Virus record (IMG/VR): IMGVR_UViG_3300028833_002727 | Direction: 5' to 3' (one strand) | Origin: a virus | Taxonomy: Duplodnaviria > Heunggongvirae > Uroviricota > Caudoviricetes | Length of the DNA stretch: 64,000 nucleotides | In this document: positions 27,984-62,580 of the stretch, one piece after another | Numbering within the stretch: the stretch's first letter is position 1 | Layout: every line of letters starts with the position of its first letter | Notes under the pieces: generated by a model | Told to the model about the DNA's origin: nothing | What the model saw: the letters and a program-made list of their open reading frames with translations, nothing else | Databases searched by the model: none | Program-made: the position numbers and the translations under genes

Positions 27984-28268
27984 TCATTTTATAAATCTGC
28001 TGCAAAGGTAATACATTTTTTTCAAATAACCAAATAAAGTTGAAATTATTTTAAAAAGTCCTATGACCCGGAGGTTACCGGACGTAGCTATCCCGGGAAG
28101 CTTTAATCTAATAATAAAAGAAATAAATAAAGAAAACTACAAAAAGAAATATAAAGGAACGTGCGTTATGTGCATATGTATGATGGATTAGAATTTTTTT
28201 CTTTTTTTAATTTTATCAAGAAAAAAATGTATATTTGTTATGAAATTTGAATTAAATCATAAAGCAAC

Positions 28269-30437: not shown

Positions 30438-31238
30438 ATGGGAAAAGTTAAAAAAGACAGTTTAGGTGACAGAATGAAAAGATACGAGGGTGTAAGCAAA
30501 AACACTCTTGTATCTCGTATGCCAGTAATTCTTAGATTGGATGGCTGTCACTTCCACACATTTACAAAAGGTTTTCAAAAACCATTTGATGATGTTTTAA
30601 TGAAATCAATGAAAGACACTATGAAGTATCTTTGTGAGAACATTCAGGGCTGTGTATTTGGTTACACTCAATCTGATGAAATCACATTGGTATTAGTGGA
30701 TTATCAGAACATCAATTCATCACCGTGGTTTGATAACGAGGTACAAAAAATGTGCTCTGTTGCATCATCTATGGCTGGTATGTTCTTTGCACGTACGTTT
30801 GCATACAACGTACTAATGTCAGAACTCAATGAAGATGATAAACTATTCAAGGTTTATAACAATGCAATTAACCGTGGTGCTTACTTCGATTGTAGAGCAT
30901 TTAACGTTCCACAGAGCGATGTTTGTAACTGTGTTCTATGGCGCCAGCAAGACGCAACAAGAAACTCAATACAAGCATTAGCACAAGCTAACTTTTCTCA
31001 AAAACAACTACATGGCTTGAGTTGTGATAAACTTCAAGATAAACTGTTTGTTGAGAAAGGCATTAACTGGAACAATTTGTCAACTGACAAGAAACGTGGT
31101 TCTGCATGTATTAAGCAGAAGTATTCATTCACTAACCAACATGGGGAGGAAACAATCAGAATGCGTTGGATTGTTGATGATGATATGCCTATTCTCACAC
31201 AAGATAGGGATTATATTGAGAAACTAATTTATTTTTAA
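30438..31238 (+). CDS. Thg1-like protein (tRNA-His guanylyltransferase family 3'-5' nucleotidyltransferase)
   Basis: VILRLDGCHFHTF, KPFDDVLMKSM and FGYTQSDEITLVL align with the Thg1 signatures VVVRLDGRNFHRF, KPND...LM and YGQSDEYSFVF. Confidence 0.8.
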   Translation: MGKVKKDSLGDRMKRYEGVSKNTLVSRMPVILRLDGCHFHTFTKGFQKPFDDVLMKSMKDTMKYLCENIQGCVFGYTQSDEITLVLVDYQNINSSPWFDNEVQKMCSVASSMAGMFFARTFAYNVLMSELNEDDKLFKVYNNAINRGAYFDCRAFNVPQSDVCNCVLWRQQDATRNSIQALAQANFSQKQLHGLSCDKLQDKLFVEKGINWNNLSTDKKRGSACIKQKYSFTNQHGEETIRMRWIVDDDMPILTQDRDYIEKLIYF

Positions 31239-31259: not shown

Positions 31260-32765
31260 ATGGAATTAAGTTCAATTATTACTATTTGTGTGGTTGTAGT
31301 CTTATTATTGGTGCTCGTTGCACTATCATACGTTAAGACTAGTCCTAACCAAGCCTTGGTTATCTCTGGATGGCCTAAAAAGAAACCTAAGTTTTTAATC
31401 GGTACTGGTGGGCTTCGTATCCCAGGTTTGCAGAAAATTGACAAACTTTACCTTGGACAATTATCTGTAGATATTAAGACTGATACATCAGTTCCAACGT
31501 CTGACTTTATCAATGTAGATGTAGATGCAGTAGCGAAAGTTCGTATCGACCCTAATCACATTGATATTGCAGCAGCAAACTTCCTTGGTAAATCACGTGA
31601 AGACATTGCACGAGAAATTAGAGACTCATTGCAAGGTAACATGCGTGAAATCATTGGTACACAAGACTTACGTTCTTTGAACAATGATAGAGATGGCTTC
31701 TCTAACCAAATTCAAGAAAAGGCTGCGCCAGATATGGCGAAACTTGGTATTGAGATTCTTTCATGTAACATTCAATCAATTACCGATAAGGAAGGATTGA
31801 TTCACGCACTTGGTGCTGACAACACATGTAAGATTACTAAGGATGCTTCTATCAACAAAGCAAATGCGGAACGTGACGTTGCAATCGCTAAGGCTCAAGC
31901 AGAGAAAGAGGCTAATGATGCTCGTGTCGCTTCTCAAACACAAATTGCTGAAAAGAATACTGAATTAGCAGTTCGTCAGGCTGAATTGAAACGCCAGGCT
32001 GATACCCAAAAGGCTATTGCCGACGCTGCTTATGAGATTCAAAAGCAAGAACAAGCAAAGGATATTAACGTGAAGACTGTTGAGGCAGAAACTGCTCGTG
32101 AAATACGTGCGCAAGAGCAACAACGTCAAATTAACAAACTTACAGTTGAAGCACAAGTTGAGCGTGCAAAACAAGAGCAACTTTTGAGAGAGCAAGAGAT
32201 TGCCATCCAGGAGAAAACTCTTCAAGCACAAATTAACAAGAAAGCAGATGCTGAGAAGTATCAGAAAGAGGTTGATGCAGCAGCCGTATTGGAGCAACGC
32301 AAACGTGAAGCAGAGGCTAAACGTTATGAGGCTGAACAAGAGGCAGCAGCAGTAAAAGCAAAAGCAGAGGCTGATTTATTCGCACAACAACAAAAAGCGG
32401 CAGGTATTGAGGCTGTAGGTAAGGCAGAAGCGGCAGCAATTAAGGCTAAAGGTGAAGCCGAGGCAGCAGCAATGGATAAAAAGGCTGAAGCGTTCAAGAA
32501 GTATGGACCAGCCGCTCTTGCAGAAATGGCATTCAACAAACTTCCTGAAGTTGCACGTGAAGTTGCACAACCAATTTCATCAATTAAGGATGTACACGTA
32601 TACGGTACTACAGGCTGTGAGGCTTCTGGTGTCGCAGGTAACGTTCCAGTTTTGATGAAACAAACTATGGATGTAATGCAAGAGGCAACTGGTGTAGATT
32701 TGCGTCAAATCATGCAAGACAACTCAAAAGTTGTTGCAGCAGGTGCTGAGGTAAAACATAAATAA
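31260..32765 (+). CDS. SPFH/band-7 flotillin-like protein
   Basis: N-terminal TM helix, an SPFH core, then a long EA-rich coiled coil (AEAKRYEAEQEAAAVKAKAEA...). Confidence 0.75.
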   Translation: MELSSIITICVVVVLLLVLVALSYVKTSPNQALVISGWPKKKPKFLIGTGGLRIPGLQKIDKLYLGQLSVDIKTDTSVPTSDFINVDVDAVAKVRIDPNHIDIAAANFLGKSREDIAREIRDSLQGNMREIIGTQDLRSLNNDRDGFSNQIQEKAAPDMAKLGIEILSCNIQSITDKEGLIHALGADNTCKITKDASINKANAERDVAIAKAQAEKEANDARVASQTQIAEKNTELAVRQAELKRQADTQKAIADAAYEIQKQEQAKDINVKTVEAETAREIRAQEQQRQINKLTVEAQVERAKQEQLLREQEIAIQEKTLQAQINKKADAEKYQKEVDAAAVLEQRKREAEAKRYEAEQEAAAVKAKAEADLFAQQQKAAGIEAVGKAEAAAIKAKGEAEAAAMDKKAEAFKKYGPAALAEMAFNKLPEVAREVAQPISSIKDVHVYGTTGCEASGVAGNVPVLMKQTMDVMQEATGVDLRQIMQDNSKVVAAGAEVKHK

Positions 32766-34106: not shown

Positions 34107-34658
34107 ATGATATTTGGTATTAAAACAAGAAGAGAGTTAAAACAAGAGGTGTTAGACTTGGAAGACAGAATTTACAGAGCAAACAGTAAATTACTTGCTT
34201 TTTCTGATAAAAGCAATCGCGATGACGCAAAAATTAAGTTTTATGAAGACATCTTCAATCATTTGATTTTTGAAAATGGTAGCACGGACATTCCAGAAGG
34301 TTCGATATTATTAGAACTAAAGGAATTTAGCCTTATTGGTAAAACCGAAGAGGCAATCGAAGCACTTGAAGGTGTAAAGGAAGAAACTGAGACGCCAAAG
34401 TATAATGCGACATTATATTGTAATGAGGATGCACCATATATGTATCTTTCTAAAAAACTTACAGAAGGTTATAAATACTTTGCCGCTAATTTCTCAAAAG
34501 GTAGCATTCAGTTCTATTTGAACAATGATGGTAAAGGTATTGAGATTGATAGTAATAACCGAGTAAGAAATAAGTTAATTCTCCAACTTTTACAGGAGTT
34601 ATACGGGTTCATTGACGGAAAAAATTCATTATTTTTCGAAAAAATTCAAATTTTTTGA
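34107..34658 (+). CDS. Hypothetical protein
   Basis: ORF. Confidence 0.4.
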   Translation: MIFGIKTRRELKQEVLDLEDRIYRANSKLLAFSDKSNRDDAKIKFYEDIFNHLIFENGSTDIPEGSILLELKEFSLIGKTEEAIEALEGVKEETETPKYNATLYCNEDAPYMYLSKKLTEGYKYFAANFSKGSIQFYLNNDGKGIEIDSNNRVRNKLILQLLQELYGFIDGKNSLFFEKIQIF

Positions 34659-34959
34659 TATTTTTTAAATTATTCGTATATTTATTGTAGAAGAAATTAA
34701 AAAAGTAGACAAAAACACGTTACAACAAAATGATTAACAATTACACAAATATTATTAGTGCTGCCACATCTAGTTTATCAAACTTAGATGAACAACATTC
34801 ATGTGATCCAGCCAATAATGTCGCGTTGTAGGAGTTAATCGGAGATATAACTAAAAAAATAGACGAGTGTTTAGAAAGTGATTTTCCTCCTCCTACAATC
34901 AAAAGTAGCGTGGAGGTTTTTTAGTGCTTAAAAAGATTTTTTGCATTTTTTTCGTAAAA

Positions 34960-34995
34960 TATTTGGTTATTTGAAAAAAAAGCAGTATCTTTGCA
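34960..34995 (+). promoter_or_regulatory. Bacteroidetes sigma-A-type promoter. It is copy 1 of a 5-copy ~40-nt repeat.
   Basis: TTTG at 34962-34965 and TAtcTTTG at 34986-34993. The wider sequence AAATATTTGGTTATTTGAAAAAAAAGCAGTATCTTTGCACCAG is shared. Confidence 0.6.
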
Positions 34996-35080
34996 CCAGA
35001 AATTGAATGTCACGGATAAAAAGTTACGCGAAAGCACTTGACTTTTTGAAAAGATCAGTGATATTGAAATTAGAAACAAT

Positions 35081-35192
35081 GGGCTATTAGTTTAATGGAG
35101 TACGACGCGTCTATTAAAGAAGTTTAACTTCGACTCGTACGCTAGAATGCCAGGCAGTCCTGTTGAATGAGGTTCGATTCCTTGATAGTCCG
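35081..35192 (+). ncRNA. tRNA-like element A (112 nt). It has a 7-bp acceptor, a canonical T-arm and an unresolved core with an extra long hairpin.
   Basis: GGGCTAT pairs ATAGTCC. The T-arm is TGAGG-TTCGATT-CCTTG. The element lies ~70 nt downstream of promoter copy 1. Confidence 0.35.
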
Positions 35193-35217
35193 CAAAAAAA
35201 AATAAAAAAAATGCAAA

Positions 35218-35255
35218 AATATTTGGTTATTTGAAAAAATTGCCGTATCTTTGCA
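35218..35255 (+). promoter_or_regulatory. Promoter repeat copy 2
   Basis: TTTG at 35222-35225 and TAtcTTTG at 35246-35253. Confidence 0.55.
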
Positions 35256-35628
35256 CCAGATTTCAGTAATGAAGTCTACAAGTGGATAAGATTGAAACAA
35301 CGAAACATAGTCGACAGTTTCTATGTGGGGAGTGTTGGAAGAACAATAAATCCACACCAATGTGTTCTTTGACGTATTGATTGACTATAGAAAAAAGACA
35401 TGGAACGGTTGGGAATACCTCTCAACCACCAGATGCACCTGTTCCACGTTGTGAAACGCATTTGGGTTCGTCCTTTTATCTATTATATATATTATAAGGT
35501 GTAAGACTTGGCGAAATGTTGGGAATGAAAAGAAGCATTGATGAGTGTATATAATGATAATTGAAATAAACATTAAGGAATATATAACTGTAATTAAACC
35601 TTATAAAAAACTTAGTTCAGTTCAACTT

Positions 35629-36397
35629 GGCGCTGTGGTGGAATTGGTAGACACGAGGGACTTAATTCGTAATTGATTGATTATCAATACATTACAATTT
35701 GAGTGATACGGCACGAAAGTCCGTATTAGAACCTACCTAATTCGGTAGAAGTCCGTTGAGTATGTGTAGTATCACTTGTTGATGCAATAATAATGCGACA
35801 CTCATGTGTCACAGAGGCGGTTGAGAACCCGCCCGCATACAAATCCCATAGCATAAACAAAGATATGTGTGAGGGTGCTAAACAATAATGTATACGGAAA
35901 ATACCGAGCCAATATGCTATGCAAGGATGCTTCTGTTATAATAATCCATATCACTGTGGATGTTCGACGTTCACTCGTCGTGGAAAACAGTTTTAGACGT
36001 AAAAAGCGAAGTATAGTGATAGTGCGTAGAGACTTTACAGTAGGAACCTAAGTTAGAATTGTTATGTTAGAACGAAACTCGCGATCAATTGAGGGTATGT
36101 GTATTGCCGTTGATGATTGGTAACCATCTGATGCTTCGAGCATAAAAACGCCATGTTGCATGGAACGCACACAAATAGTAGAGGAGAGTGGCATAACAAC
36201 TTGCAAGATTCTAATATGGTTTAGAGCAAGTCCAGACTACAACAAACAACAAAACGGGTTTGACTCCCTTAGTAGGCTAACGACCCGCTGAACGAGAAAT
36301 CGTTATACGATGCTGTTGTTTGGCTATGGCAACATAGAGTAGTATGAAAATCCCTTGCCCAGTGATGGGCGTGCCGGTTCGAGTCCGGCCAGCGCTA
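35629..36397 (+). tRNA. tRNA-Leu(UAA) interrupted by an intron. Exons are 35629-35663 and 36347-36397.
   Basis: The 5' exon is GGCGCTG-TG-GTG-GAATTGGTAGA-CAC-G-AGGGA-CTT. The 3' exon is AAAA-TCCCT-TGCCCAGTGATGGGCG(long variable arm)-GCCGG-TTCGAGT-CCGGC-CAGCGCT-A73. The intron sits between U34 and A35. Confidence 0.7.
35664..36346 (+). ncRNA. Putative group I intron (~683 nt, no ORF) in tRNA-Leu(UAA)
   Basis: It lies at the canonical cyanobacterial/plastid trnL(UAA) position. The 5' exon ends in U and the intron ends in G. An IGS-like AAGTCC (35716-35721) is complementary to the exon GGACTT. A P7-like CAGACTA lies at ~36228. Confidence 0.5.
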
Positions 36398-36540
36398 CAA
36401 ACCTCCTTTCGTTAAAAACTCCTGGGTTTTCAGAGTTTCCAAATCTGGTTAGCAGAAGCCCTTTCTTTTTTTAAAAAATTAACAAAAAAATGTAATACTT
36501 TTCGAACTTTACAAGTATTTATTATAAAAGAAAGTAAATT

Positions 36541-37122
36541 ATGGATAGTATTAGATTTTGTAAAAAACATGGCGAATGTGAACACGTGTTAAGTTCTGGT
36601 AAGTGGCGTTGTAAAAAATGCCGTAGTGAAGCGGTACAAAAACGTAGAGATAAGATTAAACTAATGTCTATTGAATATAAGGGTGGAAAATGTGAAATAT
36701 GCGGATATGACAAATGTATAGATGCATTAGAATTTCATCATTTAAATCCAAATGAAAAAGATTTTGGTATTGCCGAAAAAGGGTACACACGTTCATTTGA
36801 TAAAGTAAAAGAAGAGTTAGATAAATGTATTTTAGTTTGTGCGAATTGTCACAGAGAAATACACCATAAAGATAAAAAAAGAAATGTTTATGAATTGTTA
36901 AATGAAATTCACAATAAACAAGAAAAAGCAATTACGTCTAAAAAAGAAAGAAAACAAATACCAACCATAGATGAATTTATATCAGTATTTAAAATGTATT
37001 TAAACTTTACACAAGTTGGAAAATATTTTGGTGTCACAGATAATTCTGTGAGGAAATGGTGTAAAAAATATGGTTTACCAATCCATACTAAAGAATTGTG
37101 TAGGTATATACATAACATGTAA
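36541..37122 (+). CDS. HNH homing endonuclease with a C-terminal HTH-like module
   Basis: GKCEICGY...EFHHLNPNEKD...CANCHREIHH. Conserved leader AAGTATTTATTATAAAAG upstream. The stop overlaps the tRNA-Asn start. Confidence 0.75.
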   Translation: MDSIRFCKKHGECEHVLSSGKWRCKKCRSEAVQKRRDKIKLMSIEYKGGKCEICGYDKCIDALEFHHLNPNEKDFGIAEKGYTRSFDKVKEELDKCILVCANCHREIHHKDKKRNVYELLNEIHNKQEKAITSKKERKQIPTIDEFISVFKMYLNFTQVGKYFGVTDNSVRKWCKKYGLPIHTKELCRYIHNM

Positions 37123-37199
37123 CCGTAGTCAAGTGGCCAACGACAGCAGACTGTTAATCTGCCCCGAAAGGTTCCCAGGTTCGAATCCTGGCGGTTGCG
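37119..37199 (+). tRNA. tRNA-Asn(GUU), atypical 12-nt variable region
   Basis: Acceptor GTAACCG/CGGTTGC. Anticodon arm GCAGA-CTGTTAA-TCTGC. T-arm CCAGG-TTCGAAT-CCTGG. Confidence 0.55.
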
Positions 37200-37730
37200 C
37201 AAAAATCCAACACACCATTCCGTAAGTGGTTGAGGTTGATGTCTTTGTAGAGTATAGCGGTTACGGACGTGATTTTCTACATCTGGCTAAAGGCAATAAT
37301 ATAGTGAAACCTGGTTATCACGGCGCCTAGAGTGCGCAATTCGGGTTCAAATCCTGGCTATTGACAATAAGAGAGGCATACAGCAAAACAAAAAACTATT
37401 TTTTTAAAAACATTGAATTTGGGTTTCAAAAACGTTATAAAAAAGTGCCTCTTGTACTCAAGTATATATAGCCGCCACCCCCAAGTACAAGGGGCACACC
37501 AGACTTACATGGTTATCTCTTTTCCTGGAGAGATTGTAAAATAGGGCATTAGGAGCGAGTTAGTTGGATCAGAACTTATCTGATTAGAGAATTGCCCGCA
37601 GTCTGCGAACGTAAATAAGCAGTAATGGTAGATATGGGGAGCACTGAATTACGTAATAGATGTTTCATGAAACTATCTAAAAGTGACAAGCAAGCCACTT
37701 TAGCGTGTGATAAAACCGCACAGGGCGCCG

Positions 37731-38966
37731 ATAGTTGAGGGACAACAACTTTAAAAACCTCTATGGAGAAGTACAATTCATGGCAAAGTATAGACGGGGT
37801 TGAGGTGGTGCGCACTGTACTATAAAAAGAGTAAGGATAAGGAAAATGCGTAGCCTCACTTATAGTTGAAGGAAAACAACTTTAAAAAAGACAATAACCT
37901 ATGAATAATTAGGTGAGTTAAACCAGCTACACAAATGCTGTATGTGATAGTGATAAAATGCAGCCATGGAGGCTAACAAAAAGATTGCAAACTTTTTGAA
38001 TGCATTAATAACTTCCATGATTAAATAGTTGAAGGAAAACAACTTTAAAAACCAATATTAAACCACGAAAAAGACTAGAAGTTACAGCGTTGCTCCATTT
38101 TAGCCGAGGACGAAGCCGTGTGGGTCACTATTGAAATGAAGACTCTTTCCGGTGGGGAGAGTGATATTACTTTCACTAATGGAGGTGGGAGTGATAGGAT
38201 AGGCCAAAAACAGCACTATGTGGTTTATATTTAAAGTATTGCGCTGGTGATGAGAAGATACCAGTACCACAGGCCGTAGAAAGCAAAGAGAAATAATTGC
38301 GCAATAAAACTCTTGGGCGTACTACTGATAAGCGAAGATAAAGGTTAAAACTAGGCTGCTTCGGATACTTCAATATAGTTGAAGGAAAACAACTTAAATG
38401 AACCAAATTTAACTCCTATCGTCTAGTGGTTTAGGACATGCCGCGGTAAAGACATTGGTTCGAATCCAATTGGGAGTTCTTTGTGAAGAAAAACGGCTTA
38501 TAAAAAGCAACTTAGAAAAGTCGAGGAACTTCTGTTTATGCAATTTGACATTACGTCACCAGTCGATATTCGATGAGGCTCTGAATAGGTCGCACCTTAT
38601 AAGTAGGGGAATTGAGTACATAAACAGCGGGAGAAAGGTAAACTCGTGGGCTGGTTCGCTCTCCCAAATTTATAGTTGAAGGAAAACAACTCTAAAAACC
38701 CATACAGATGGAGTGAGAGATACTCGATTCGGTTGAAGGTGTCCTGCCGATAACAACGAGACATATCCTAAACATCGGGATAATTTTGATGTTCGGTTAG
38801 TTAGATACCGCTTGATAGGTGTACAATGTCAAGTTGCTAATCGTTAATAGGCCGACAGGTAATCTGTTCTTATTACGCGAGTTGCCTGAGTTCGAACACG
38901 CTTCTTCCGAACAGAACAGAAAAGTATCTTTTAATTATAGTTGAAGGAAACAACTTAAAAAATCCC
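37731..38966 (+). repeat. Six copies of the hairpin motif TAGTTGAAGGAAAACAACTTTAAAAA in an ORF-free structured region
   Basis: Copies at 37731-37759, 37861-37890, 38025-38053, 38375-38400, 38671-38700 and 38937-38966. The stem is AGTTG/CAACT with an 8-nt loop. Spacing is irregular (127-347 nt). Confidence 0.7.
38410..38477 (+). pseudogene. tRNA-like (Glu/Val-type body) with a disrupted anticodon arm
   Basis: Acceptor ACTCCTA/TGGGAGT. D-arm GTCTAGTGGTTTAGGAC. T-arm ATTGG-TTCGAAT-CCAAT. No foldable anticodon stem. Confidence 0.4.
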
Positions 38967-39470
38967 AATAATGGTGATGAAAAGGTAGCACTTATATGCC
39001 TCGTAAGCATATGGTTATACAATTCCGGATTAAAGTATGACTTATTGACTTCAATTCAATCGTCACCGAAATTACATATAAGTTGGCAGACTTATATAAT
39101 GTCCTTTTGGACAACCTTATCGGTTAATGATACTACTCCGATGAATGATGTAAAAAATGGGCTTACTTAACATCTGCCCCCGAATAGTTTCAATGCACAC
39201 TGCCAATTTGCATTGTTAGGAAAGTCGGTGTTCGTTCAGAAATCTCCTGATATACGACTCTAACTCGATTATATCAGTGTGAAGTATCTTTTAGTATAGT
39301 GAAGCAATCCTACTCAGTGGAAAGTGAGGGTGTGAGTTCCCATATCCAAGAAACAGAAAAAAATCAGAACACATGGAAAATCATAATTTTCTTAAAAAGA
39401 GGCTTAGGATGTGAATTGGAACCGTTAAGCAAATGTATGATTTGACTATCAGGAATAGACTGATACTTTT

Positions 39471-39542
39471 GCCCCGTTCGTCTAGTGGCCCAGGACATCG
39501 CCCTTTCACGGCGGAAACTCGGATTCGAATTCCGGACGGGGT
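39471..39542 (+). tRNA. tRNA-Glu(UUC)
   Basis: GCCCCGT...GTCTAGTGGCCCAGGAC-A-TCGCC-CTTTCAC-GGCGG...TTCGAAT...ACGGGGT. Confidence 0.85.
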
Positions 39543-40829
39543 ACAACAAAAGATTACTTATTACTGATCTTCTACTATAAATTTTATAAGTGTTAGGATT
39601 GGAAGTGTCCATACTTAATGAGTGGTTGCCCACCGGATCTATTAACGCCCATTGGTAACAGATGGAAACGCAACTTAGTCGGATAAATGGAAAAAGAAAC
39701 TTTAAGTTCAATTTTATGTGAGTGTAACTGAAAAGGAATTGCATAAAATATATTTACCTTTGGTGTAAAAACACGCTTATATAATTTTTTTACGTATATT
39801 TAAAACGAAGAGAGACGTACAGCAAAACTCACACTTTATTGGAAAACAGCAAATTTTCTACCAAAAGCAAATTGTCTCTTGTAAATGCTTGAATACTTTT
39901 CATAAGCAACATATACGGAAGACGTACAGCAAAGCATTTTTAGGATAACACTTTTAATGTTAAATTCTTGTCTTCTGAACTACAGTTGGCAACTGACTTA
40001 TAGTTGCGGAGAAAATCGGGATGATAACCCGTTGACTGTTGTGTGTTTTCAACATGACGTGAACACTCGCTGAGGTTAGAATTTTTCCGCATAGGCTAAT
40101 CACCAGAAATTCAAATTTTTCAACTCCACCATTTCATTGGTGGACAAAGACACGAAACCCTAACACGGTACTAAATTCGTGACTGCCAGGTTATAAGGTT
40201 GCTCCTGACAAAAATAGTTCTTAGGTGAACGGTATGCCAATAAGCTTTTAATTAGCGCCTGAAGCAGACTTTCTTCGGTGGGTGAAAGTCAAACCTGGGT
40301 CGCGCCAGGATTGGTAGCAAATAATAACTTATGTGCCTGAATAAGCGGTAGACTGCTGCTAAAGGACGTATTGTTGTACTGAAAAGTACGCGGTGCGGTT
40401 AACGGGCATTACGAAGCATAAAGTTGAATTAGCCACGGTTGGCCAACCGTGAGTGACGTAAGAACAGGACAAATCGTGTTTTATGACTGAGGTCTGTATC
40501 CTGTTGGAGGTAATCATTCCTCCCACCCATTCAAACTAAGAGAGTTGCTAACTCTTAGGGGTGTGACTGAATAATGTGCGTAGTGTTTGGTTTTATAGGT
40601 AGTCAGGAATCCTATCATTTGTTATTACCTTTTATGTCTTATGTTGTATTATTCTTTTTTGTGAGATATAAACAACTGTCCCAAGACATTAGACTTGTGA
40701 AAGGCTGTAGTGTTTGTTTTATTAGTTTTCTGTCAAAGTGCAGTAACCTTGACGTCAGGACAAAACATGAAAACTAATTTTTATCGTGGCAGAGTGAAAC
40801 GGATATGTCGATAAGCATTTCGGCAGACA

Positions 40830-40881
40830 TCATCAGAGGCTCATAACCTCTGGATAGTGGGTTCGACTCCCGCAGCCGCAA
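40830..40881 (+). other. Partial tRNA-like: anticodon arm (CAU), T-arm and 3' acceptor strand without a matching 5' half
   Basis: AGAGG-CTCATAA-CCTCT, GGATA, GTGGG-TTCGACT-CCCGC, AGCCGCA-A. No complementary TGCGGCT upstream. Confidence 0.3.
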
Positions 40882-40887
40882 CAATAT

Positions 40888-40961
40888 GATAGCGTAGCTC
40901 AACTGGTTAGAGTGCTGGCCTGTCACGCCAGTGGTTGCGGGTTCGAGTCCCGTCGCTATCG
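40888..40961 (+). tRNA. tRNA-Asp(GUC)
   Basis: GATAGCG/CGCTATC acceptor. CTGGC-CTGTCAC-GCCAG anticodon arm. Confidence 0.85.
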
Positions 40962-40998
40962 CTAAAGATAGACGTACAGCGAACAACTAACTCATTTG

Positions 40999-41082
40999 GG
41001 AACTATGGGTCGTGGGTTCGAGTCCCGCCCGCCCGACTAAATAACACAAATCGGGCGGTAGCTCAGTTGGCAGAGCAATAGT
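40999..41082 (+). other. Permuted tRNA locus 1. The 3' half (41002-41036) lies upstream of the 5' half (41052-41082).
   Basis: The 3' half is ACTAT-GGGTC-GTGGG-TTCGAGT-CCCGC-CCGCCCG-A. A 15-nt spacer follows. The 5' half is CGGGCGG-TA-GCTC-AGTTGGCA-GAGC-A-ATAGT. The acceptor strands are perfectly complementary and the anticodon-stem halves ATAGT/ACTAT are complementary. Leader ATAGAC is complementary to trailer GTCTAT. Confidence 0.45.
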
Positions 41083-41489
41083 AGAGAAAAAAATGTCTAT
41101 TGTAATTTTATGTTGTGTTATTTTCTTTTTGTAAATATGAACAACAGTGAGTAAACACTATAACATCTGGCGGAGAGGTGTGGATTTGTTCCACGTTTCC
41201 AGCGCGGTAACGCTCTAAAATTCCAGTAGCCCGTAGGTGAGCGGGTGAAGAGACTGTGGAGGGAAGAGGCAACGAACCCTGTGAAACAGTAATATCATAA
41301 GCCAAATTTCGGTTGGTAGATAATCACCTTCCAGTATTGATGCAAACTTTGTAATAGGGTGAAACAATGTTACATCGGGCAACCCCGTTTGCGTTTCTAA
41401 GCGGCTAGGATGTAGGTTGACACTTGGTAATACGAGTGGGGCTACGGACACCGACAAGGCTTTTTGGTTGCTCATCAATACTTTTTAAT

Positions 41490-41564
41490 GGGGGATTAGC
41501 TCAGTCTGGCTAGAGCACCTGCTTTGCAAGCAGGGGGTCGTGGATTCGAATTCCACATCCTCCA
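41490..41564 (+). tRNA. tRNA-Ala(UGC)
   Basis: GGGGGAT...CCTGC-TTTGCAA-GCAGG...GTGGA-TTCGAAT-TCCAC-ATCCTCC-A. Confidence 0.85.
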
Positions 41565-41637
41565 CTTTTGTAAAAAAAAAGTTCGAAATAAGTATTTTTC
41601 CACACTAATGAAGTATTTATATATAAACAATAAAAAT

Positions 41638-42552
41638 ATGTATATAGATATTTCAACAGAAGAAAAAAAACAAGAATTTATACTACTTTTAAGTAGGTTT
41701 AAACGGAAAGGGGATATATTCAAATATTATCAAGTATCAGACAACACAAAAAATACAAGATATTTAAACAATATATTACAAACATTAGGTATAAACAATG
41801 AGTTTTTTTCCAAAAAAAGAAAAGAAAAGAAATTTTGTTTAAAGTGTGGTAAAGAATTAAAATATGGACAACATAAATTTTGTAGTAACAGTTGTTCGGC
41901 ATCTTACAACAATAAAAATAGAGAATATAGTGACGAAGTAAAACAAAAAATACGTGTTGGTGTTTTATTGTCTATGGGTATAACAGATATTGAAACATAT
42001 AGAAATACCAGCACAGAAAAAAAATGTGGGTACTGTGGTAGAATGTTCACTACAGCAAAAAAACATCAAAAATTTTGTTGTCAAGAATGTTCAAGAAGAA
42101 ACAGAAGATTACAAGAAATAAAAAATAAGGACGAAAGGGATATATATAAAAGTCAAACTAAATTCAATTTTAGTTTAAATGCTTATCCAGATGAGTTTGA
42201 TTTTTCCTTAATCAAAGAAAATGGTTGGTATCAAGCGACAAATCATGGTGATAACTTACGTGGCATTAGCAGAGATCATATGTTTTCAGTAGATGAAGGA
42301 TATAAACAAAATATAGACCCGTATTTAATTTCTCATCCAGCAAATTGTAAATTGATGAAACATGAAGACAACTTTAAAAAGAAAACAGAATGTTCAATAA
42401 CACTTAATGAACTAAAACAAAGAGTTAATGATTGGAATAAAAAATACGGAGTATATGAAAATAAAATAGATTATACAAAATTAGAAAAATTTAAGGAAAT
42501 GCAGGGTTCGAATCCCGCATCCTCCACAACTAATAATAATGTTAAACAATAA
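41638..42552 (+). CDS. HNH homing endonuclease with N-terminal CxxC zinc-finger repeats
   Basis: GISRDHMFSVDEGY...NCKLMKHEDN HNH motif. The start is placed after the conserved leader GAAGTATTTATATATAAAC. The 3' end of the ORF overlaps a degenerate copy of the tRNA-Ala 3' end. Confidence 0.7.
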   Translation: MYIDISTEEKKQEFILLLSRFKRKGDIFKYYQVSDNTKNTRYLNNILQTLGINNEFFSKKRKEKKFCLKCGKELKYGQHKFCSNSCSASYNNKNREYSDEVKQKIRVGVLLSMGITDIETYRNTSTEKKCGYCGRMFTTAKKHQKFCCQECSRRNRRLQEIKNKDERDIYKSQTKFNFSLNAYPDEFDFSLIKENGWYQATNHGDNLRGISRDHMFSVDEGYKQNIDPYLISHPANCKLMKHEDNFKKKTECSITLNELKQRVNDWNKKYGVYENKIDYTKLEKFKEMQGSNPASSTTNNNVKQ

Positions 42553-42682
42553 AAAACGAAACAACTATGAAAAATCACATTCATTGGTAGATTCGTAGAA
42601 GTCGTTCTCCTAATGTGTTTTTGTTAATCTAAGGAGGTAACAAAAATCAAAATTAAATTAACAAAAAATAAACACATTAAAA

Positions 42683-43090
42683 ATGGAGAATAAAACTATG
42701 AAAACTACAGAACAAATCAATCAAATTAAAACATTAAAACGCTTAATTGCGGAAATGGTAGCAGAACACAAGGCTACTAAATTAAACGAAGGACGCTACG
42801 GTAAATTCCGTAACGAAAGAGAACGCCTATTCATTGCATATACGGCTTACTATATGCTTCGTCATGGCATCGAAGACTTTGATGCATACATCGAGTCAGT
42901 AATGAACAAATTAAAACCAGAAAAACAAAATAAGGAGTATCCTTACCAGTTCTTCGGTGTTGAATTAGAGTCATTACCTCGTTGGAATAGATGGGGAAGC
43001 GTTAAGAATGCAGTAACCCATTGCATCGAATGCTTGGACAAAGTTATTGCTAAGGAGCAAGAAAATGCAGTTGAAGATGGAAACGAGTAA
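42683..43090 (+). CDS. Hypothetical protein
   Basis: ORF with a GGAG ribosome-binding site. Confidence 0.4.
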   Translation: MENKTMKTTEQINQIKTLKRLIAEMVAEHKATKLNEGRYGKFRNERERLFIAYTAYYMLRHGIEDFDAYIESVMNKLKPEKQNKEYPYQFFGVELESLPRWNRWGSVKNAVTHCIECLDKVIAKEQENAVEDGNE

Positions 43091-43376
43091 CCGCCTTTAC
43101 ATCCTCGTAAGTGAGGATTTAGCACCAATCTACGGCGCTGTACAGGGCGGGCACGCAATAGCGCAGTGGATGTTGGAACATTCCGACAATCTCTACTGGA
43201 AAAACGAAACTGTTGTGTATTTAAGTTGTAATGTTGAAAAGATGAAGTATCTACTTGAATGGGATGATATATCCATATTCAGAGAACCTGATCTTAATAA
43301 CAAACTTACAGCAATCGCAGTAGTTGGTAATCCAAGAAATGAACGAATGTTCAAGAAATTGAGACTTCTTCAATGA
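43065..43376 (+). CDS. Pth2-like peptidyl-tRNA hydrolase (start uncertain: 43047, 43065 or 43077)
   Basis: YILVSEDLAPIYGAVQGGHAIAQW resembles the PTH2 GKxAAQxxHAA core. The C-terminal KKLRLLQ resembles the PTH2 tail. Confidence 0.5.
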   Translation: MQLKMETSNRLYILVSEDLAPIYGAVQGGHAIAQWMLEHSDNLYWKNETVVYLSCNVEKMKYLLEWDDISIFREPDLNNKLTAIAVVGNPRNERMFKKLRLLQ

Positions 43377-43418
43377 ATGTCATAAAAAATTTGGGCGTTG
43401 AAATATACGCCTGAATAT

Positions 43419-43490
43419 GACCTATTAGTTCAACGATAGAACGGTACCCTCTAAAAGTATGCGTCGCGGGTTTGACTCCTGCATAGGTCA
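43419..43490 (+). tRNA. Putative amber-suppressor tRNA(CUA)
   Basis: Acceptor GACCTAT/ATAGGTC. D-stem GTTC/GAAC. Anticodon arm GTACC-CTCTAAA-AGTAT with U33 and A37 in place and a C31-A39 mismatch. T-arm GCGGG-TTTGACT-CCTGC. Confidence 0.45.
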
Positions 43491-43655
43491 CAAATGTTTA
43501 TATGTAGTAGTTACATGTTTAGAACGATCAACAAAACACAACATATGAAAGCATATGGGATAAAATGGATTCTGCTATTACACCGCAGTTCATAAGTATG
43601 TTTACCGTGGAGAATCGGGAATCGGTAATGTAACTATTAACTTGTAATCATAGTT

Positions 43656-43740
43656 GCCACATTGGGACAGTTGGTCGACTCCGCTTGACTTGTAATCAAG
43701 ATGCTTATGCGCGCCGTCGGTTCGAATCCGGCATGTGGCT
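43656..43740 (+). tRNA. tRNA with anticodon UGU (Thr) but an 85-nt type-II-like body (15-nt variable region)
   Basis: GCCACAT/ATGTGGC. CTTGA-CTTGTAA-TCAAG. GTCGG-TTCGAAT-CCGGC. Confidence 0.5.
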
Positions 43741-44461
43741 CTAAATAAGGTTGACGGTAGATGTCATTAAATCATTCTACAGAACTAAATTTACTGAGTT
43801 CAGTACTCCTCACGGGGAGTTCAAAGTAAAAAGGGGTGCCGAGTCCTCTTGAGCCTTATGACAGTTTACGTTCAATATTCAGAGGGGAGTAGCTTTGAGC
43901 GAAATTAAAACATCTGACCCTTATTTGGTAGTTGGACGTTATCCTATATTGTCCGTCTGATGTTCATGCGCAGAACAGTCATTCGTAAAAATCGTAATCG
44001 AACACCTCTTTAGTTCGAAATGAAGGGTTGTGGTAAATCTAATGCTTAGTGTTACGGATAAGATAGCAACGCAGTATGCTAACAAGACTATGCTGCTCAT
44101 TTTTTGGACGCGGTTGTTTTATGGTTAAAAAACATCCTAGCCTCTTCGGAGGTTGAACCAATAGTATCACCCAACTCGCAGAGTTAGGACGCTAAACCAG
44201 TGGCGCGCCAAAGATATTCGTCAGGCGCTGAGCCTTTCGCCAGAAGGCAGTGGTGATATTTTTAATAGTCGCTCATCCGACTTATTTTCCTGGTTTTGTA
44301 TAAATCAGGTGGTGGCCAAGCCGTGGGTTTTTTACCAAATACCCTGCATCGTTTTTTGGGTTGGAGTTAAGCATTGGCAAGATTGTGATGCTCATTAGTG
44401 AATTCGGTTAAAGTCCGAAAGCTTCATCCCCCTTACAAAACGGTGTGAACTAATAAATTTT

Positions 44462-44812: not shown

Positions 44813-45120
44813 CAATAGTAGAACGTATAGTTTAATGATAGCGCGCTAAAACATGTAGAACAACGGCGTAGTAAGTCGTAGGTATAGGTTTGATTCCTTT
44901 TGCGCTCTGAATCAGTCACTGATGTTGTCAAGACTCGTTCTTGGCTGGGATATAAAAGCATTACACTGGTAAAATTTTTCTGAAAAAAACACAAAATATC
45001 ATATAAAAGTTGTATATTTAACTTGAAGAGAGACTTACAGCACAATTTAAGATTTCCACAATCTAAACCAAACGTCTCTTGACAAAAAATAAATACAATC
45101 AAAAAAAACAATCACAAGTA

Positions 45121-45651: not shown

Positions 45652-45757
45652 GGAGTTCTGCCTTAAATGTTCAAAAATAACCTATAAGAGAGACTTACAG
45701 CAAATTTCTACTTTATTTCTGCGTTAATTAGAAAAAAAAAGAATGTCTCTTGTATTT

Positions 45758-49575: not shown

Positions 49576-49738
49576 CAAGAATCAATTCGGTGGATGGTAA
49601 CATGTACATTGGGCGGTTGTACACTATGTGTCGACGGGAGTGCATGACTTGGTTCTTTTTTTGAAAATTAAAATAAAAAACGTATATTTATAAACGAAGA
49701 GAGACTTACAGCAAAACAACATTATCTATCAATCCATG

Positions 49739-49825
49739 TTAAGGAAGGGGTCGCGGGTTCAAGTCCCGTCATCGTCTCAAAAAAAAAATGTATGACGATG
49801 TAGCTCAGTTGGTTAGAGCACTTAA
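49739..49825 (+). other. Permuted tRNA locus 2. The 3' half (49739-49777) lies upstream of the 5' half (49794-49825).
   Basis: The 3' half is TTAAG-(9 nt)-GCGGG-TTCAAGT-CCCGT-CATCGTC-T. A 16-nt spacer follows. The 5' half is GACGATG-TA-GCTC-AGTTGGTTA-GAGC-A-CTTAA. The acceptor and anticodon-stem halves are complementary. It sits inside a unit bounded by AGAGAC...GTCTCT. Confidence 0.45.
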
Positions 49826-59259: not shown

Positions 59260-59623
59260 ATGGGGCTGTTTGGCTTTGACTGGAAGATTGATACGATTGT
59301 AAGCATGTAGAGAATGAGAAATCTCTTTAAAAGACTTGACAACACAATAAATGGCGAAAGAACTTACGCTCTTGCTGCTTAATCGAAGCACAGTAGATTA
59401 ACTTTTTCAGATGCAAGGCATTTGAGCAAGACATCACTCCAAGCCGAGTCTGTGGGCTTAATGGATATAGTGGTGCTGGAATACATAGAATAGATGTTAC
59501 ATGCTGTGATGTAATGTTGAAGTTTTAGCAGATAAGGTGACTTTTGATGGTTTGAGTCGTATAGTCGCTCGAAAATCTAAATCAAACTAAACATGTAGAA
59601 AGCGAAAATATTACTTGCAACAC

Positions 59624-59650
59624 ACGGGTTCGACTCCCGTCAGCTCCACC
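59624..59650 (+). other. Isolated tRNA 3' fragment (T-arm plus acceptor 3' strand plus CC)
   Basis: ACGGG-TTCGACT-CCCGT-CAGCTCC-A-CC. No complementary 5' half in the window. Confidence 0.4.
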
Positions 59651-60456: not shown

Positions 60457-62580
60457 ATGAAGAAAATTTTTGTCTTTCTGATCGGAATTTTGTTTTCCGT
60501 ACAAGCGTTTTCTCAGGTTAACGACACAATCAAAAACCTGACACTGGATGAGGTAACAGTTACCTCGATGTATCGTTCTAACACCACCGACATGGATGAG
60601 TTGAAGGTTGACGTTATCAACCATGTAAATGTCGGACAGGAACCGTCTCACATGTTTAAAACTATGCCGTCTATCTATGCGCGTAGCGATAACGGTACGG
60701 AGTTTGGTTATGGTTACTACTATATTCGTGGTTTGGATCAGACTCGTATTAACGTAACATTGGATGGTATGCCGTGGAATGAGGGCGAAGACTTTGGTAC
60801 TTATTTTGCAAACTCCCCGGATTTAATGGCAAGTATGCACAGTGCAAAGGTTGAGCGTGGTACAAGTTCAAAAACGAATGGTGTATCAGCAGCAGCAGGT
60901 AATGTTAACTTGGAGTCCGTAAATTTGCGCCAGGACACGCTTTCTTATGTCCAAGGTATGTACGGTGGGGATAACACCTATAAAGCCAGCGTAGTGTACA
61001 ATATGGGGCTTAAAAAGGGTTTTGGATTACACCTTAAAGCCACTACAAGCCATACGGATGGTTATCGTAGTAATAGTTGGAATAATTCACATGCGTTTAC
61101 TGCTAAATTTGGCTACTATTTCAATGATAGACACTCGATTGATGTGTTAAGCATTAACGGTTATCATAGTAACTGTCAGGGATGGATTGGCTCAACAAAA
61201 GCAGAGTTGGACAACGACGCGCGTGCCAATGGTAACACAAAAGATGAAACTGATAACTGGATTCAGACTGTTAATAAAATCCAATATAAGGGTTGGTTGA
61301 CTGACAACACACTGTTGAGTGCATCTGTATATCTCCAATATCAAACAGGTAGTTATCGTTTCGACCATGATAATTATTGCTATCATGCTATTCTTGCAAC
61401 TCCATATACAGACGATGGCGGAGTATATCATCCATATGGTGATTGGGCTGTGAATCCTGGTACAATTTATGATTACGGATTGACACATTATTTGTATGGT
61501 GGTAACGTAGTTGCACGTAGTACTGTTGGCATATTTGACATCTATGGCGGTGTAAACGCATATGGCTTCCAACGTGAGCATTTTATGGATGAGCGTAATA
61601 AATCCCATTGGAAAAATGTTCATGTTTCGGAATACTATGATAACATTGGTTATAAAACCGATATTAACGTATTCGCAGGTACAACAGCACACCTTGGTAA
61701 TTGGACACTTGGCGCGAATTTACAATACCGTCATGTTGATTTCTCTTATACAGATAAAATGAACAATGTACATTTATCTAGTGGTGACATGAAAACTAAT
61801 TGGAATTTCGTAAATGGTGGTGTTGACATTACCTATAATATCAATAAAAATCATCATATATATGCAAAATTAGCAGTATCTAATCGTGAGCCGATGCGTA
61901 GTGATATGTTCGATGGTAATGAACGTATATATCCTGATTCTTCGGGTGATATTAAATTTACTAATGAACTTAAATCAGAATTAGTACATGATGTGGAACT
62001 TGGATGGGAAGGTAAAGGTTCTATCTTTAAAGCGAACGTGAACCTCTATTACATGCATTTCAAGAATGAGTTAATTCTGAATGGTAATCTTGGTTCGAAC
62101 GGACTCCCTGGGCACGTAAATGCAGATAACAGTTTCCGTACTGGTGCAGAGGTATCGTTTGATGTTGAACCCGTAAAAGGTTTACACTTTGTAAATTCTA
62201 CATCTTATGCCTATGGAAAAGTGAACAAAGCGAATGTATGTAACAATGCTACTCACATTTTCTTCCCTGCATGGACGTTGTTCCAAGATATTCACTATGA
62301 TACGAAAGTTGGTGATGTAGCGGTTACTGTAGGCGCTAACTATGACTTGCGTAGTAAAATCTACCTTGATTTGGATAACCAATATTCGTTGCCTACCAAT
62401 ATGGCACTTAACGTATATGGTAGTCTTACATTCCGCGATAGAATTGAGTTGTCGTTGCACCTCAACAATATCACAAATCATGTGAATTACTCTTATGGTA
62501 GTGTGAATGGTAATGGTGACATTCTGTACGTACAGGAGTCTAAATTCAACTGCCTTGGTAGTGTAAAGTTCTACTTCTAA
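60457..62580 (+). CDS. TonB-dependent outer-membrane receptor
   Basis: Signal peptide. Plug-domain motif IRGLDQTRINVTLDGMPWN. Long beta-barrel region. C-terminal aromatic residue F. Confidence 0.8.
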   Translation: MKKIFVFLIGILFSVQAFSQVNDTIKNLTLDEVTVTSMYRSNTTDMDELKVDVINHVNVGQEPSHMFKTMPSIYARSDNGTEFGYGYYYIRGLDQTRINVTLDGMPWNEGEDFGTYFANSPDLMASMHSAKVERGTSSKTNGVSAAAGNVNLESVNLRQDTLSYVQGMYGGDNTYKASVVYNMGLKKGFGLHLKATTSHTDGYRSNSWNNSHAFTAKFGYYFNDRHSIDVLSINGYHSNCQGWIGSTKAELDNDARANGNTKDETDNWIQTVNKIQYKGWLTDNTLLSASVYLQYQTGSYRFDHDNYCYHAILATPYTDDGGVYHPYGDWAVNPGTIYDYGLTHYLYGGNVVARSTVGIFDIYGGVNAYGFQREHFMDERNKSHWKNVHVSEYYDNIGYKTDINVFAGTTAHLGNWTLGANLQYRHVDFSYTDKMNNVHLSSGDMKTNWNFVNGGVDITYNINKNHHIYAKLAVSNREPMRSDMFDGNERIYPDSSGDIKFTNELKSELVHDVELGWEGKGSIFKANVNLYYMHFKNELILNGNLGSNGLPGHVNADNSFRTGAEVSFDVEPVKGLHFVNSTSYAYGKVNKANVCNNATHIFFPAWTLFQDIHYDTKVGDVAVTVGANYDLRSKIYLDLDNQYSLPTNMALNVYGSLTFRDRIELSLHLNNITNHVNYSYGSVNGNGDILYVQESKFNCLGSVKFYF

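Follow-up and report, generated by a model that had tools for sequence, protein, structure and literature searches.

The tRNA region of phage T4 encodes the species 1 and species 2 RNAs, which are presumably cut from precursors by RNase P together with other nucleases. In Lak megaphages, intergenic regions of up to 1.5 kb without genes or tRNAs have been described (bioRxiv 10.1101/356790; PMC6784885). Here, we analysed a region of this type in a 64-kb stretch of phage DNA (one strand of IMG/VR record IMGVR_UViG_3300028833_002727), which is called the window in the following. A near-identical hairpin motif occurs six times within 37200-41100, a part of the window that is free of open reading frames (ORFs), and it separates small, conserved RNA units. 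Small RNAs punctuated by this hairpin appear to be the best-supported reading of the segment 37501-39075.

The window originates from a Lak-related megaphage, a giant phage of the gut or rumen, and apart from tRNA genes, 37200-41100 has DNA in common with no database phages other than the Prevotella Lak megaphages and LR756501, a phage of 735 kb. The hairpin array forms the 5' end of a tRNA/tmRNA island of about 22 kb, for which ARAGORN listed 33 tRNA genes and a tmRNA at 37119-59730, all on the plus strand. Most of these tRNAs were backed by Rfam, which added a few atypical ones. We combined ARAGORN, Rfam and Pfam with covariance models, BLAST, Tandem Repeats Finder, regular-expression scans, shuffled controls and a literature search, and compared the window with related viral and metagenome loci, which are designated by L-numbers (L001, L005, L020 etc.).

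The hairpin motif in the window and in related phages

The motif reads ATAGTTG-AAGGAAAA-CAACTTTAAAAACC. A covariance model (R2) detected six copies in the 64 kb, all on the plus strand at 37728-38966, which is exactly the number claimed in an earlier reading of the letters alone (the sequence-only reading). A literal pattern search with up to three mismatches found five copies, compared with none in 100 shuffles, and a repeat finder placed all six in one family (D12) with start-to-start distances of 131, 163, 350, 297 and 265 nt. Copy 1 (37728-37761, 31.5 bits in the R2 model) carries the variant loop GAGGGACAAC, copies 2 (37859-37892, 49.9 bits) and 3 (38022-38055, 48.6 bits) match the pattern exactly, and copies 4 (38372-38405, 48.1 bits) and 5 (38669-38702, 50.3 bits) are followed by copy 6 (38934-38966, 42.9 bits) with a 7-nt loop. 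In addition, two degenerate relics on the same strand could be read from the sequence: one at about 38228-38243, where relatives have an intact motif after unit U3a (described below), and one (TTTGTGAAGAAAAACGGCTTATAAAAAGC) at 38480-38508, where the intact motif is present in L001.

Over all loci, the copies share the consensus (A/T)TAGTTG-AAGGAAAA-CAACTT(T)AAAAACC, a module of about 30 nt consisting of a 5-bp stem that can be extended to 8 bp, the purine loop AAGGAAAA and a single-stranded A-rich tail (UUUAAAAACC). The stem was paired in 99.6 % of 553 alignment cells and four of its five pairs showed double changes that preserve pairing, values that none of 500 shuffles reached. A closer look at the low-scoring variants revealed that they retain AAGGA as the loop core and G-C as the closing pair, while the stems differ and are yet complementary (TATAAG/CTTTATA, ACAAG/CTTG, TATAGG/CCTATA, AGTAC/GTACT and AATTG/CAATT). 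Several kinds occur per contig, such as GTTG/CAAC, TAAG/CTTA and TAGG/CCTA in L001 and L008. This pattern fits a hairpin whose loop would be read specifically, and is a poor fit to base-specific recognition of double-stranded DNA.

The exact 19-mer core of the motif was found in 6 IMG/VR and 32 metagenome contigs, frequently with many occurrences in one contig, and the covariance model counted about 175 copies over these 38 related viral and metagenome loci. Motif-bearing genomes include the 498-kb contig Ga0247610_10000001 and the 380-kb IMG/VR contig to which L005 belongs. In the 28 loci with tRNA genes, 136 of 136 ARAGORN tRNAs lie on the motif strand. When 6-40 kb of sequence flanking the tRNA island were searched with the model in Lak-A1, Lak-B1, LR756501 and four further huge-phage loci with a 320-nt RNA also present in the window (see below), not a single copy was detected; the motif therefore marks a sister clade and not Lak itself.

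A search of 185,579 bacterial and archaeal genomes with the 18-mer core gave 40 scattered single matches and no array. When eight of these 40 loci were tested with the model, five matched in the core only (18- or 19-mer), one in a partial stretch, and L090, a contig of a Tenericutes metagenome-assembled genome (MAG), was the only strong full-length match. These numbers bear on the idea that the hairpin imitates a host RNA or serves as its decoy, for instance as a minimised CRISPR repeat that acts as an RNA anti-CRISPR or borrows a Cas nuclease of the host for processing. Its GTTG...ACAAC ends may resemble Prevotella type VI-B (Cas13b) repeats, a likeness that was not confirmed in the papers searched. 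Prevotella CRISPR spacers are reported to target Lak-type phages (PMC6784885). Set against the scattered single matches without any array, the one full-length match among the eight loci checked and a hairpin core of 16-18 nt, about half the length of such repeats, we consider this idea highly improbable.

The motif element is described neither in Rfam nor in the papers searched. Rfam had no family for the motif or the units at the gathering threshold in the 64 kb, at E<=5 in 34500-44000 or at E<=10 in 37366-39470; above the gathering threshold only tRNA and tmRNA were reported, and the search at E up to 10, which covered the inter-motif segments as the sequence-only reading had proposed, returned one tRNA-like unit and two chance-level matches only. 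The motif sequence was not found in the literature searched, and neither the theta-ribozyme paper nor a catalogue of phage structured RNAs describes it.

Conserved units and cassette turnover

The segments between the motifs are discrete units with 80-98 % identity to segments of other phage contigs (BLAST, clustering). About eight of them, 95-230 nt in length, lie head to tail on the tRNA strand, and several have a terminal stem that closes their own 5' and 3' ends. Clustering over all loci yielded more than 30 unit families with the same junction motif. Taken together, the units of the window are real and conserved RNA genes, some of them structured. The sequence-only reading had suspected a polycistronic array of small structured RNAs, delimited by the hairpin, in the 3.9-kb region. 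Conserved discrete units, some of them apparently structured, were indeed found, but the part delimited by motifs spans only about 1.4 kb (37728-39075). Different RNA genes fill the rest, and some of these come with a promoter-like element of their own. Hence 37200-41100 is not one motif-delimited polycistron; it is a mosaic of RNA genes rather than a single uniform array.

All units lie on the plus strand. The first one, U0 (37501-37727), has no motif upstream and is 89-91 % identical to L020 and 83 % to L015, where the motif follows as well. A conserved hairpin at its start (37515-37534; reverse complement 120-139 in L020) has the loop UUUCCU, which is complementary to AGGAAA in the motif loop, and a loop-loop contact between the two is conceivable from the sequence. 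A general 'anti-motif' with a loop complementary to AAGGAAAA was dropped, as the UUUCCU-loop hairpin is not consistent in other arrays. U1 (37762-37858) is a singleton in the clustering of units, and no homologue was found. U2 (37893-38021) is 98 % identical to L005 2298-2494, where it stands after the U3a homologue and not before it. U3a (38056-38240) forms a structured RNA of about 170 nt, with its two ends paired in a closing stem; homologues occur in L012, L005/L011, L002 and L009, with 82 % identity to the segments of L012, L005, L002 and L009. In a four-sequence alignment, 7 of its 42 predicted pairs showed compensatory changes.

U3b (38244-38371) is preceded by the degenerate motif relic mentioned above. 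U4a (38412-38478; Rfam tRNA 43.6 bits) is tRNA-like with acceptor, D and T arms and no anticodon loop; its homologues in L001 and L028 have a motif on either side. A canonical tRNA was rejected for U4a, since Rfam aligned 0 nt to the anticodon loop and ARAGORN made no call. The next units are U4b (38504-38668; 81 % to L004 692-862) and U5 (38703-38933; homologues in L012, L023 and L029), and the series ends with U6a (38967-39075), a unit of about 105 nt with the closing stem GGTGATGA/TCGTCACC. For U6a, eight homologues at 85-90 % identity were found, seven of which are distinct sequences in the alignment. Directly upstream of U6a, relatives have a further conserved unit, named T, with the closing stem CATGA...TCATG, a T-arm-like hairpin and a conserved GGAAGCAGGTAGTCAGACTTCC hairpin (L004 4140-4250; L012 1190-1300; L034 2630-2745; L001 2990-3130).

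The commonest partner of the motif in the relatives is family A, RNAs of some 95 nt with three hairpins, the pattern CCNTTG-P1-ACAAAG-P2-CCAAGAGAG...CTCTCAAAT and about 50 copies in related loci (e.g. L006 7698-7804, L012 1428-1526 and L001 1106-1206). Nine of its 16 pairs showed compensatory changes, and Rfam gave no match for it. The family is absent from the window, where the best score of its own covariance model with filters off was 17.9 bits, i.e. noise. One motif-flanked unit of a relative contains a segment (L012 3202-3289) that matches the L1-stalk region of bacterial 23S rRNA (2127-2214) with 60.1 bits (E=7e-16); judged by this match, the unit is a putative rRNA-fragment mimic, carried in a phage small-RNA array.

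The sequence-only reading had also described 37200-41100 as ORF-free and as GC-richer than coding DNA, and both statements held. The longest stop-to-stop frames are 129 codons in code 11, 153 in code 15 (TAG=Gln) and 147 in code 4, compared with 341-650 codons in equal-sized coding controls, and the largest frames lie on the minus strand and overlap tRNA genes. Hidden coding by recoding was discarded, since neither codes 15 and 4 nor a recoded TAA gave frames that were both long and on the right strand. The GC fraction is 0.396, compared with 0.333 for the coding part 1-34658, in phage DNA of low GC content across the window. In contrast, an enrichment in hairpins, as implied by the term hairpin-dense, was not supported: the mean folding z-score in 120-nt windows was -0.54, versus -0.72 and -0.46 in two coding controls. 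Perfect hairpins of at least 8 bp occurred at 1.28/kb versus 0.62-1.15/kb elsewhere. The z-scores do not set the region apart from coding DNA, and structure is supported by covariation only.

This bears on the view that the region is decayed coding or junk DNA with repeats as functionless leftovers, which would go along with folding energies no lower than in the coding controls and with the decay of two motif copies. It is already contradicted by the conservation data, and we give it almost no credence: the 19-mer core is identical in 38 contigs while the flanking units differ by 10-35 %, the units are conserved with compensatory changes and the homologous segments of the relatives are ORF-free as well. 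Since the homologous arrays lack ORFs and the indels between unit homologues are 1, 2 and 4 nt long, the units are not decayed protein genes, so that this objection, foreseen in the sequence-only reading, does not apply.

The position of the motif relative to the units is regular for some families and variable between them. It lies directly upstream of 25 of 25 family-A units (24 in a literal test and one GAGGGA-loop variant), and directly downstream of only three by the literal test, plus one or two loop variants by eye. Among the aligned relatives of U6a, the motif is downstream in six of six cases and several have no motif upstream. In the window, the array ends without an upstream motif at U0 and without a downstream motif at U6a. 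Because the flanking side thus varies among family A, U6a and U0, the motif is an autonomous separator and not part of a unit. Units end within 3-6 nt of the next hairpin. In L001 and L028, the hairpin starts 1-2 bases past the discriminator of a tRNA-like unit, and the next tRNA-like 5' end follows 16-19 nt after the hairpin; position +1 of tRNAs lies 6-8 nt past the end of the motif model and 13-19 nt past the hairpin.

Order, number and content of the units differ even between close relatives. U2 and U3a are swapped in L005 despite the 98 % identity of U2, with breakpoints inside motifs. In L020, sequences with about 90 % identity to 37389-37751 and to 39290-39840 flank a stretch of 274 nt with three motifs, compared with 1,539 nt and six motifs in the window; the downstream flank includes a conserved plus-strand segment ahead of tRNA-Glu (39290-39470, 91 % to L020).

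Rearrangement of units among relatives that are 90-98 % identical, with breakpoints in motifs and the same junction in more than 30 unit families, is what a DNA-level recombination or mobility site would produce, be it an attC- or REP-like hairpin or a selfish 30-bp repeat without any role in RNA, and the island is rich in HNH and DUF559 endonuclease genes. Nevertheless, we regard a pure DNA site as improbable. Homologous recombination at 30-bp repeats would shuffle the units as a by-product of any other function, and the Pfam scans of 30 ORFs (most of the larger ones in the window) revealed no integrase, transposase or RAYT-type gene. The hairpins of attC sites and of IS200/IS605 elements are much longer than a 5-bp stem. 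Neither the single orientation along the tRNA strand (28/28 loci) nor the asymmetric purine loop and the A-rich tail would be required for recombination.

A possible processing signal or promoter

With moderate confidence, and from the sequence data, we propose that 37501-39075 is a co-transcribed cassette array of small RNAs in which the hairpin would act as an RNA-level separator, i.e. a processing or stability signal. Transcription would start at a promoter ahead of the HNH gene and tRNA-Asn and yield a long precursor that includes the array, with the hairpin module as the punctuation in this RNA. A phage or host endoribonuclease or RNA-binding protein may recognise the loop and the closing pair in a sequence- and structure-specific manner, and would then cut in or beside the A-rich tail or protect the new end, so that individual small RNAs are set free; the final maturation of the tRNA-like units would fall to RNase P and RNase Z. 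The module would double as a recombination point, because it is a near-identical 30-bp direct repeat, which would explain why units are reordered, gained and lost.

We infer the long precursor because promoter classes are missing inside the array, terminators are not enriched and the units abut the next hairpin. A regex scan located the Bacteroidetes-type promoter TTTG...TAnnTTTG at 34962, 35222, 49445, 52802 and 60397; these plus-strand sites and a minus-strand site at 28034 are near-identical 32-nt copies of TTTGGTTATTTGAAAAAAAAGCAGTATCTTTG, six in all. The Bacteroidetes sigma-ABfr promoter (TTTG at -33, TAnnTTTG at -7) is absent from every motif copy by the same kind of scan, and the stretch between 36533 and 39792 is free of all three promoter-like repeat classes found in the island. 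The 5' arm TATAGTTG resembles the host-type -7 box TAnnTTTG; this assignment was rejected, as the likeness is lost in the short-stem variants. A terminator scan gave 5 sites versus 4.9 expected, none of them at a motif. The motif itself was dismissed as an intrinsic (Rho-independent) terminator, since its stem AGUUG/CAACU precedes UUUAAAAACC and no U tract. For Lak phages, large intergenic regions have been reported to rank with the most strongly expressed portions of the genome (bioRxiv 10.1101/356790), and by analogy this is consistent with co-transcription of the array in the window.

Several points weigh against this proposal. The alignment used to count covariation of the stem had been fitted to the model, and the covariation rests on few events because the stem sequence is almost invariant (107-109 of 111 distinct copies). 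The comparison of G-U pairs (3 cells) with other mismatches (2 cells) fails to discriminate pairing in RNA from pairing in DNA. Junctions without a motif exist, namely from unit T to U6a in relatives and from U4a to U4b in the window. Apart from a Thg1-like protein and endonucleases of the HNH and DUF559 types, no candidate nuclease or binding protein for the hairpin emerged from the Pfam scans of the 30 ORFs, which also showed an AAA ATPase and an SPFH/flotillin protein. Finally, a conserved 30-nt block at a fixed short distance upstream of the unit starts also fits a dedicated phage promoter.

Such a promoter is the main rival to the separator. Here, each RNA gene would have its own copy of the motif and transcription would start in the A-rich tail near ...AAACC, possibly from a promoter of the hairpin type that a phage RNA polymerase would read, as with the early promoters of phage N4. 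The extreme conservation of the 30-nt block including the stem and the strictly fixed orientation agree well with this, as do the near-fixed short distance to the conserved start of family A in all 25 cases and the 13-19 nt between hairpin and tRNA 5' ends. Lone pairs of one motif and one unit are also known, e.g. at L001 3190-3327. However, different complementary stems within one genome argue for pairing over base-specific recognition of double-stranded DNA, and the motif is unlike the Bacteroidetes-type promoter and the two other promoter-like repeat classes of the island. It never occurs in front of a protein gene in the 64 kb and is confined to RNA arrays. U0, and U6a in several relatives, are maintained without an upstream motif, and even with a promoter function read-through and processing would be needed, because no terminator lies between the units. 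We consider the promoter rather unlikely.

The long run of structured RNA genes without recognisable internal promoters would also suit a hairpin in the nascent RNA that loads a protein and keeps the polymerase elongating through a highly structured array, like the boxB of the lambda nut site or the antitermination signals of rRNA operons. The short stem and purine-rich loop of lambdoid boxB are similar in style to the 5-bp stem with its purine loop. Against this, the loop has 8 nt and is not a GNRA-like pentaloop, no boxA-like partner was seen, one site per 100-300-nt unit is unlike known systems and the motif is missing from most of the 22-kb island with its 33 tRNAs. An antitermination role is thus very unlikely.

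If the separator proposal holds, the released RNAs may mimic components of translation, as suggested by the tRNA-like unit in the window and the putative 23S L1-stalk mimic in the array of a relative. A more far-reaching scenario, which we offer as speculative and rather doubtful as a whole, is a clade-wide modular system in which a dedicated hairpin, read by a factor of phage or host, releases and shuffles more than 30 families of structured RNAs. These would include anticodon-less tRNA mimics, the 23S L1-stalk mimic and Y-RNA-like molecules, and would serve as decoys or modulators of host translation, of RNA surveillance or of defence nucleases directed against tRNA or rRNA.

Neighbouring RNA genes and comparison with known systems

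The remainder of 37200-41100 contains several RNA genes, all on the plus strand. The sequence-only reading had counted two canonical tRNAs. Rfam agrees on tRNA-Glu(UUC) (ARAGORN 39471-39544; Rfam 39471-39543, 52.9 bits) and tRNA-Asp(GUC) (ARAGORN 40888-40962; Rfam 40888-40961, 69.7 bits), and further tRNA-type features are the anticodon-less tRNA-like U4a and two genes called by ARAGORN and not listed by Rfam: a doubtful 'Ser-AGA' at 37294-37365 and an atypical tRNA-Met-like gene at 40806-40882. The latter follows a long conserved hairpin leader, and the combined element (40697-40882) has homologues in L001, L013, L033 and L003.

Upstream of it, at 40321-40650, lies a structured RNA of about 320 nt with 65-78 % identity to Lak-A, Lak-B, LR756501 and other huge-phage contigs, in which 24 of 50 predicted pairs showed compensatory changes (11 sequences). 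In these phages, it usually stands just upstream of a tRNA-Met. An assignment to manA (RF01745) was rejected, with scores of 16.3 and 24.6 bits here and 18-20 bits in the Lak-B1 and L050 homologues versus a threshold of 55.2. The three hairpins named in the sequence-only reading all exist a few bases away from the positions given there: one at 37445-37497 (14 pairs including one G-U), an 18-nt palindrome at 40434-40451 and one at 40506-40523, the last two being helices of the 320-nt RNA.

A further repeat family, AGAGAC(G/T)TACAGCAAA, is represented by seven copies in the window, all on the plus strand, versus 0.46 expected. Each of them provides the 5' side of a closing stem, and the complement was found 51-143 nt downstream in seven of seven cases. 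The stems follow the general form AGAGAC...GTCTCT and vary in a pair-preserving manner (AGAGGC/GCCTCT, ATAGAC/GTCTAT, GAAGAC/GTCTTC) around variable interiors. The first of these closed-stem RNAs (37368-37455, AGAGGC...GCCTCT, 5' ATACAGCAAA) overlaps the hairpin at 37445-37497. The second (39808-39882, as a feature 39792-39882) follows the promoter-like box ACGTATATTTAAAACGAAG, which also precedes the copies at 45029 and 49700 and occurs in L020; a promoter-like box of the form GTATATTTA...GAAG thus stands ahead of three closed-stem copies, in the 3.9 kb at 39792-39816. The third has the stem GAAGAC...GTCTTC (39916-39978), and three further copies lie outside the region (45029-45079, 45689-45750 and 49700-49784).

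The fourth closed-stem RNA of the region (40966-41100) encloses, as read from the pairing in the sequence, a circularly permuted tRNA-like domain at 41004-41080, in the order T arm and acceptor 3' strand, a 15-nt loop, acceptor 5' strand and D arm. A similar permuted element is present at the end of L020. The arrangement of an end-closing stem around a permuted tRNA-like domain is like that of YrlA (RF02553), which Rfam matched here with 38.2 bits (E=1.2e-5) versus a gathering threshold of 69, over model positions 23-85, i.e. the tRNA-like domain only. The scanned ORFs of the window included no match to a Ro/Rsr (TROVE-domain) gene. In its modular architecture, the closed-stem family seems to resemble Y RNAs.

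Upstream of the island, Pfam identified genes for an AAA ATPase, a Thg1-like protein, an SPFH/flotillin protein and an HNH endonuclease, and genes for HNH and DUF559 endonucleases are scattered through the island. Cargo that is unusual for a phage includes a TonB-dependent receptor-like protein (Plug and beta-barrel), a homologue of the Thg1-like tRNA-His guanylyltransferase and the SPFH/flotillin protein, with Pfam matches at 60457-62580, 30438-31238 and 31260-32765. The tmRNA at the 3' end of the island (59262-59650, Rfam 114 bits) encodes the tag peptide GERTYALAA. A 161-kb metagenome contig in the European Nucleotide Archive (ENA) is 99.96 % identical to the window, and the sequence is also present in ENA ERZ27257202, JGI 3300035054 and SRR7634052.

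Two tRNA genes of the window have an unusual layout. At 35628-35665, the 5' half of a tRNA-Leu(UAA)-like gene stops in the anticodon loop, and the matching T arm and acceptor 3' strand are found at 36340-36403; the gap of about 700 nt suggests a large intervening sequence, for which Rfam reported no group I intron at E up to 5. Lak phages have been reported to contain 'enigmatic' tRNA introns. The second gene, tRNA-Ala at 41490-41565, is intact; about 960 nt further downstream, at 42498-42527, another T arm occurs together with an identical acceptor 3' strand (ATCCTCCA). With a 342-aa ORF with treble-clef/zinc-ribbon matches in between, this looks like an endonuclease insertion with a duplicated tRNA 3' end. 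In the relative L001, endonuclease-like ORFs of the tRNA island (2040-2860, 3950-4500) are interrupted by in-frame TAG codons, which is consistent with a recoding of TAG like that of Lak phages. In the window itself, the long ORFs stay open when translated with the standard code.

The genomes of huge phages contain tens of tRNAs, and the region offers testable objects for what gene-free stretches of the Lak type may contain: a 30-nt hairpin present in dozens of phage contigs, a catalogue of units and evidence of exchangeable cassettes. Should the hairpin prove to be a signal for processing or loading, it provides a handle for the protein that reads it, and the ends of many phage RNAs would become predictable from sequence. 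The anticodon-less tRNA-like RNA, the L1-stalk mimic of a relative and the neighbouring Y-RNA-like RNAs hint at RNA mimics, instead of proteins, as means to manipulate translation and RNA quality control or to evade tRNA-directed defences.

Compared with described repeat systems, the array has partial likenesses. REP, BIME or MITE elements were rejected for the motif, as its six copies lie within 1.3 kb on one strand and none occurs in the other 62 kb, with the orientation of the tRNAs in 28/28 loci. Likewise, a type III toxin-antitoxin RNA (ToxI-like, with tandem repeats of about 34-36 nt) was rejected, since Tandem Repeats Finder gave no result in 37000-41300. Like CRISPR arrays, whose repeat is a processing signal, the array combines variable segments with a hairpin-forming direct repeat (about 30 nt), keeps a single orientation and differs in content between relatives. 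A CRISPR array as such does not fit: the spacing is irregular (131-350 nt) compared with unique spacers of about 26-72 nt and repeats of 23-47 nt, and the segments are conserved between phages. Pfam scans of the 30 ORFs detected no cas-like domains, and no matching host repeat was found. Integrons are alike in their promoterless cassettes of one orientation, a hairpin-forming repeat at the cassette bounds and rapid gain, loss and reordering. Here, the differences are a hairpin of 18 nt versus attC sites of 57-141 bp, units without ORFs and the lack of an integrase domain in the scanned ORFs, which led us to reject an integron array. Should the modular-system scenario be true, it would amount to an integron- or CRISPR-like architecture for functional RNAs.

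A further parallel is the punctuation of mitochondrial polycistronic transcripts, in which tRNAs punctuate and mRNA and rRNA are the cargo. There, a small RNA structure between genes marks the cut sites for nucleases, as proposed for the array, in which the mark would be a simple hairpin and the cargo includes tRNA-like RNAs. GOLLD and ROOL RNAs often adjoin phage or prophage tRNA genes. They are structured RNAs of phages and prophages as well (bioRxiv 10.1101/2024.12.08.627333), whereas the units of the array are much smaller and form a punctuated series; Rfam gave no match to either, even below curated thresholds, in the searched parts of the window and its relatives.

The T4 tRNA region resembles the array in having small RNAs among phage tRNA genes of the same strand. 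T4 is not known to have a conserved repeated spacer, while the array combines a near-invariant junction hairpin with many heterogeneous units and their turnover. The intergenic regions of Lak phages belong to the same lineage and are of the same region type, and the 320-nt RNA is common to the window, Lak-A and Lak-B, but neither RNA families nor a repeat were defined in the Lak papers (bioRxiv 10.1101/356790; PMC6784885). Seen in this context, the locus would be a polycistronic small-RNA/tRNA locus of a phage with a hairpin as its proposed separator.

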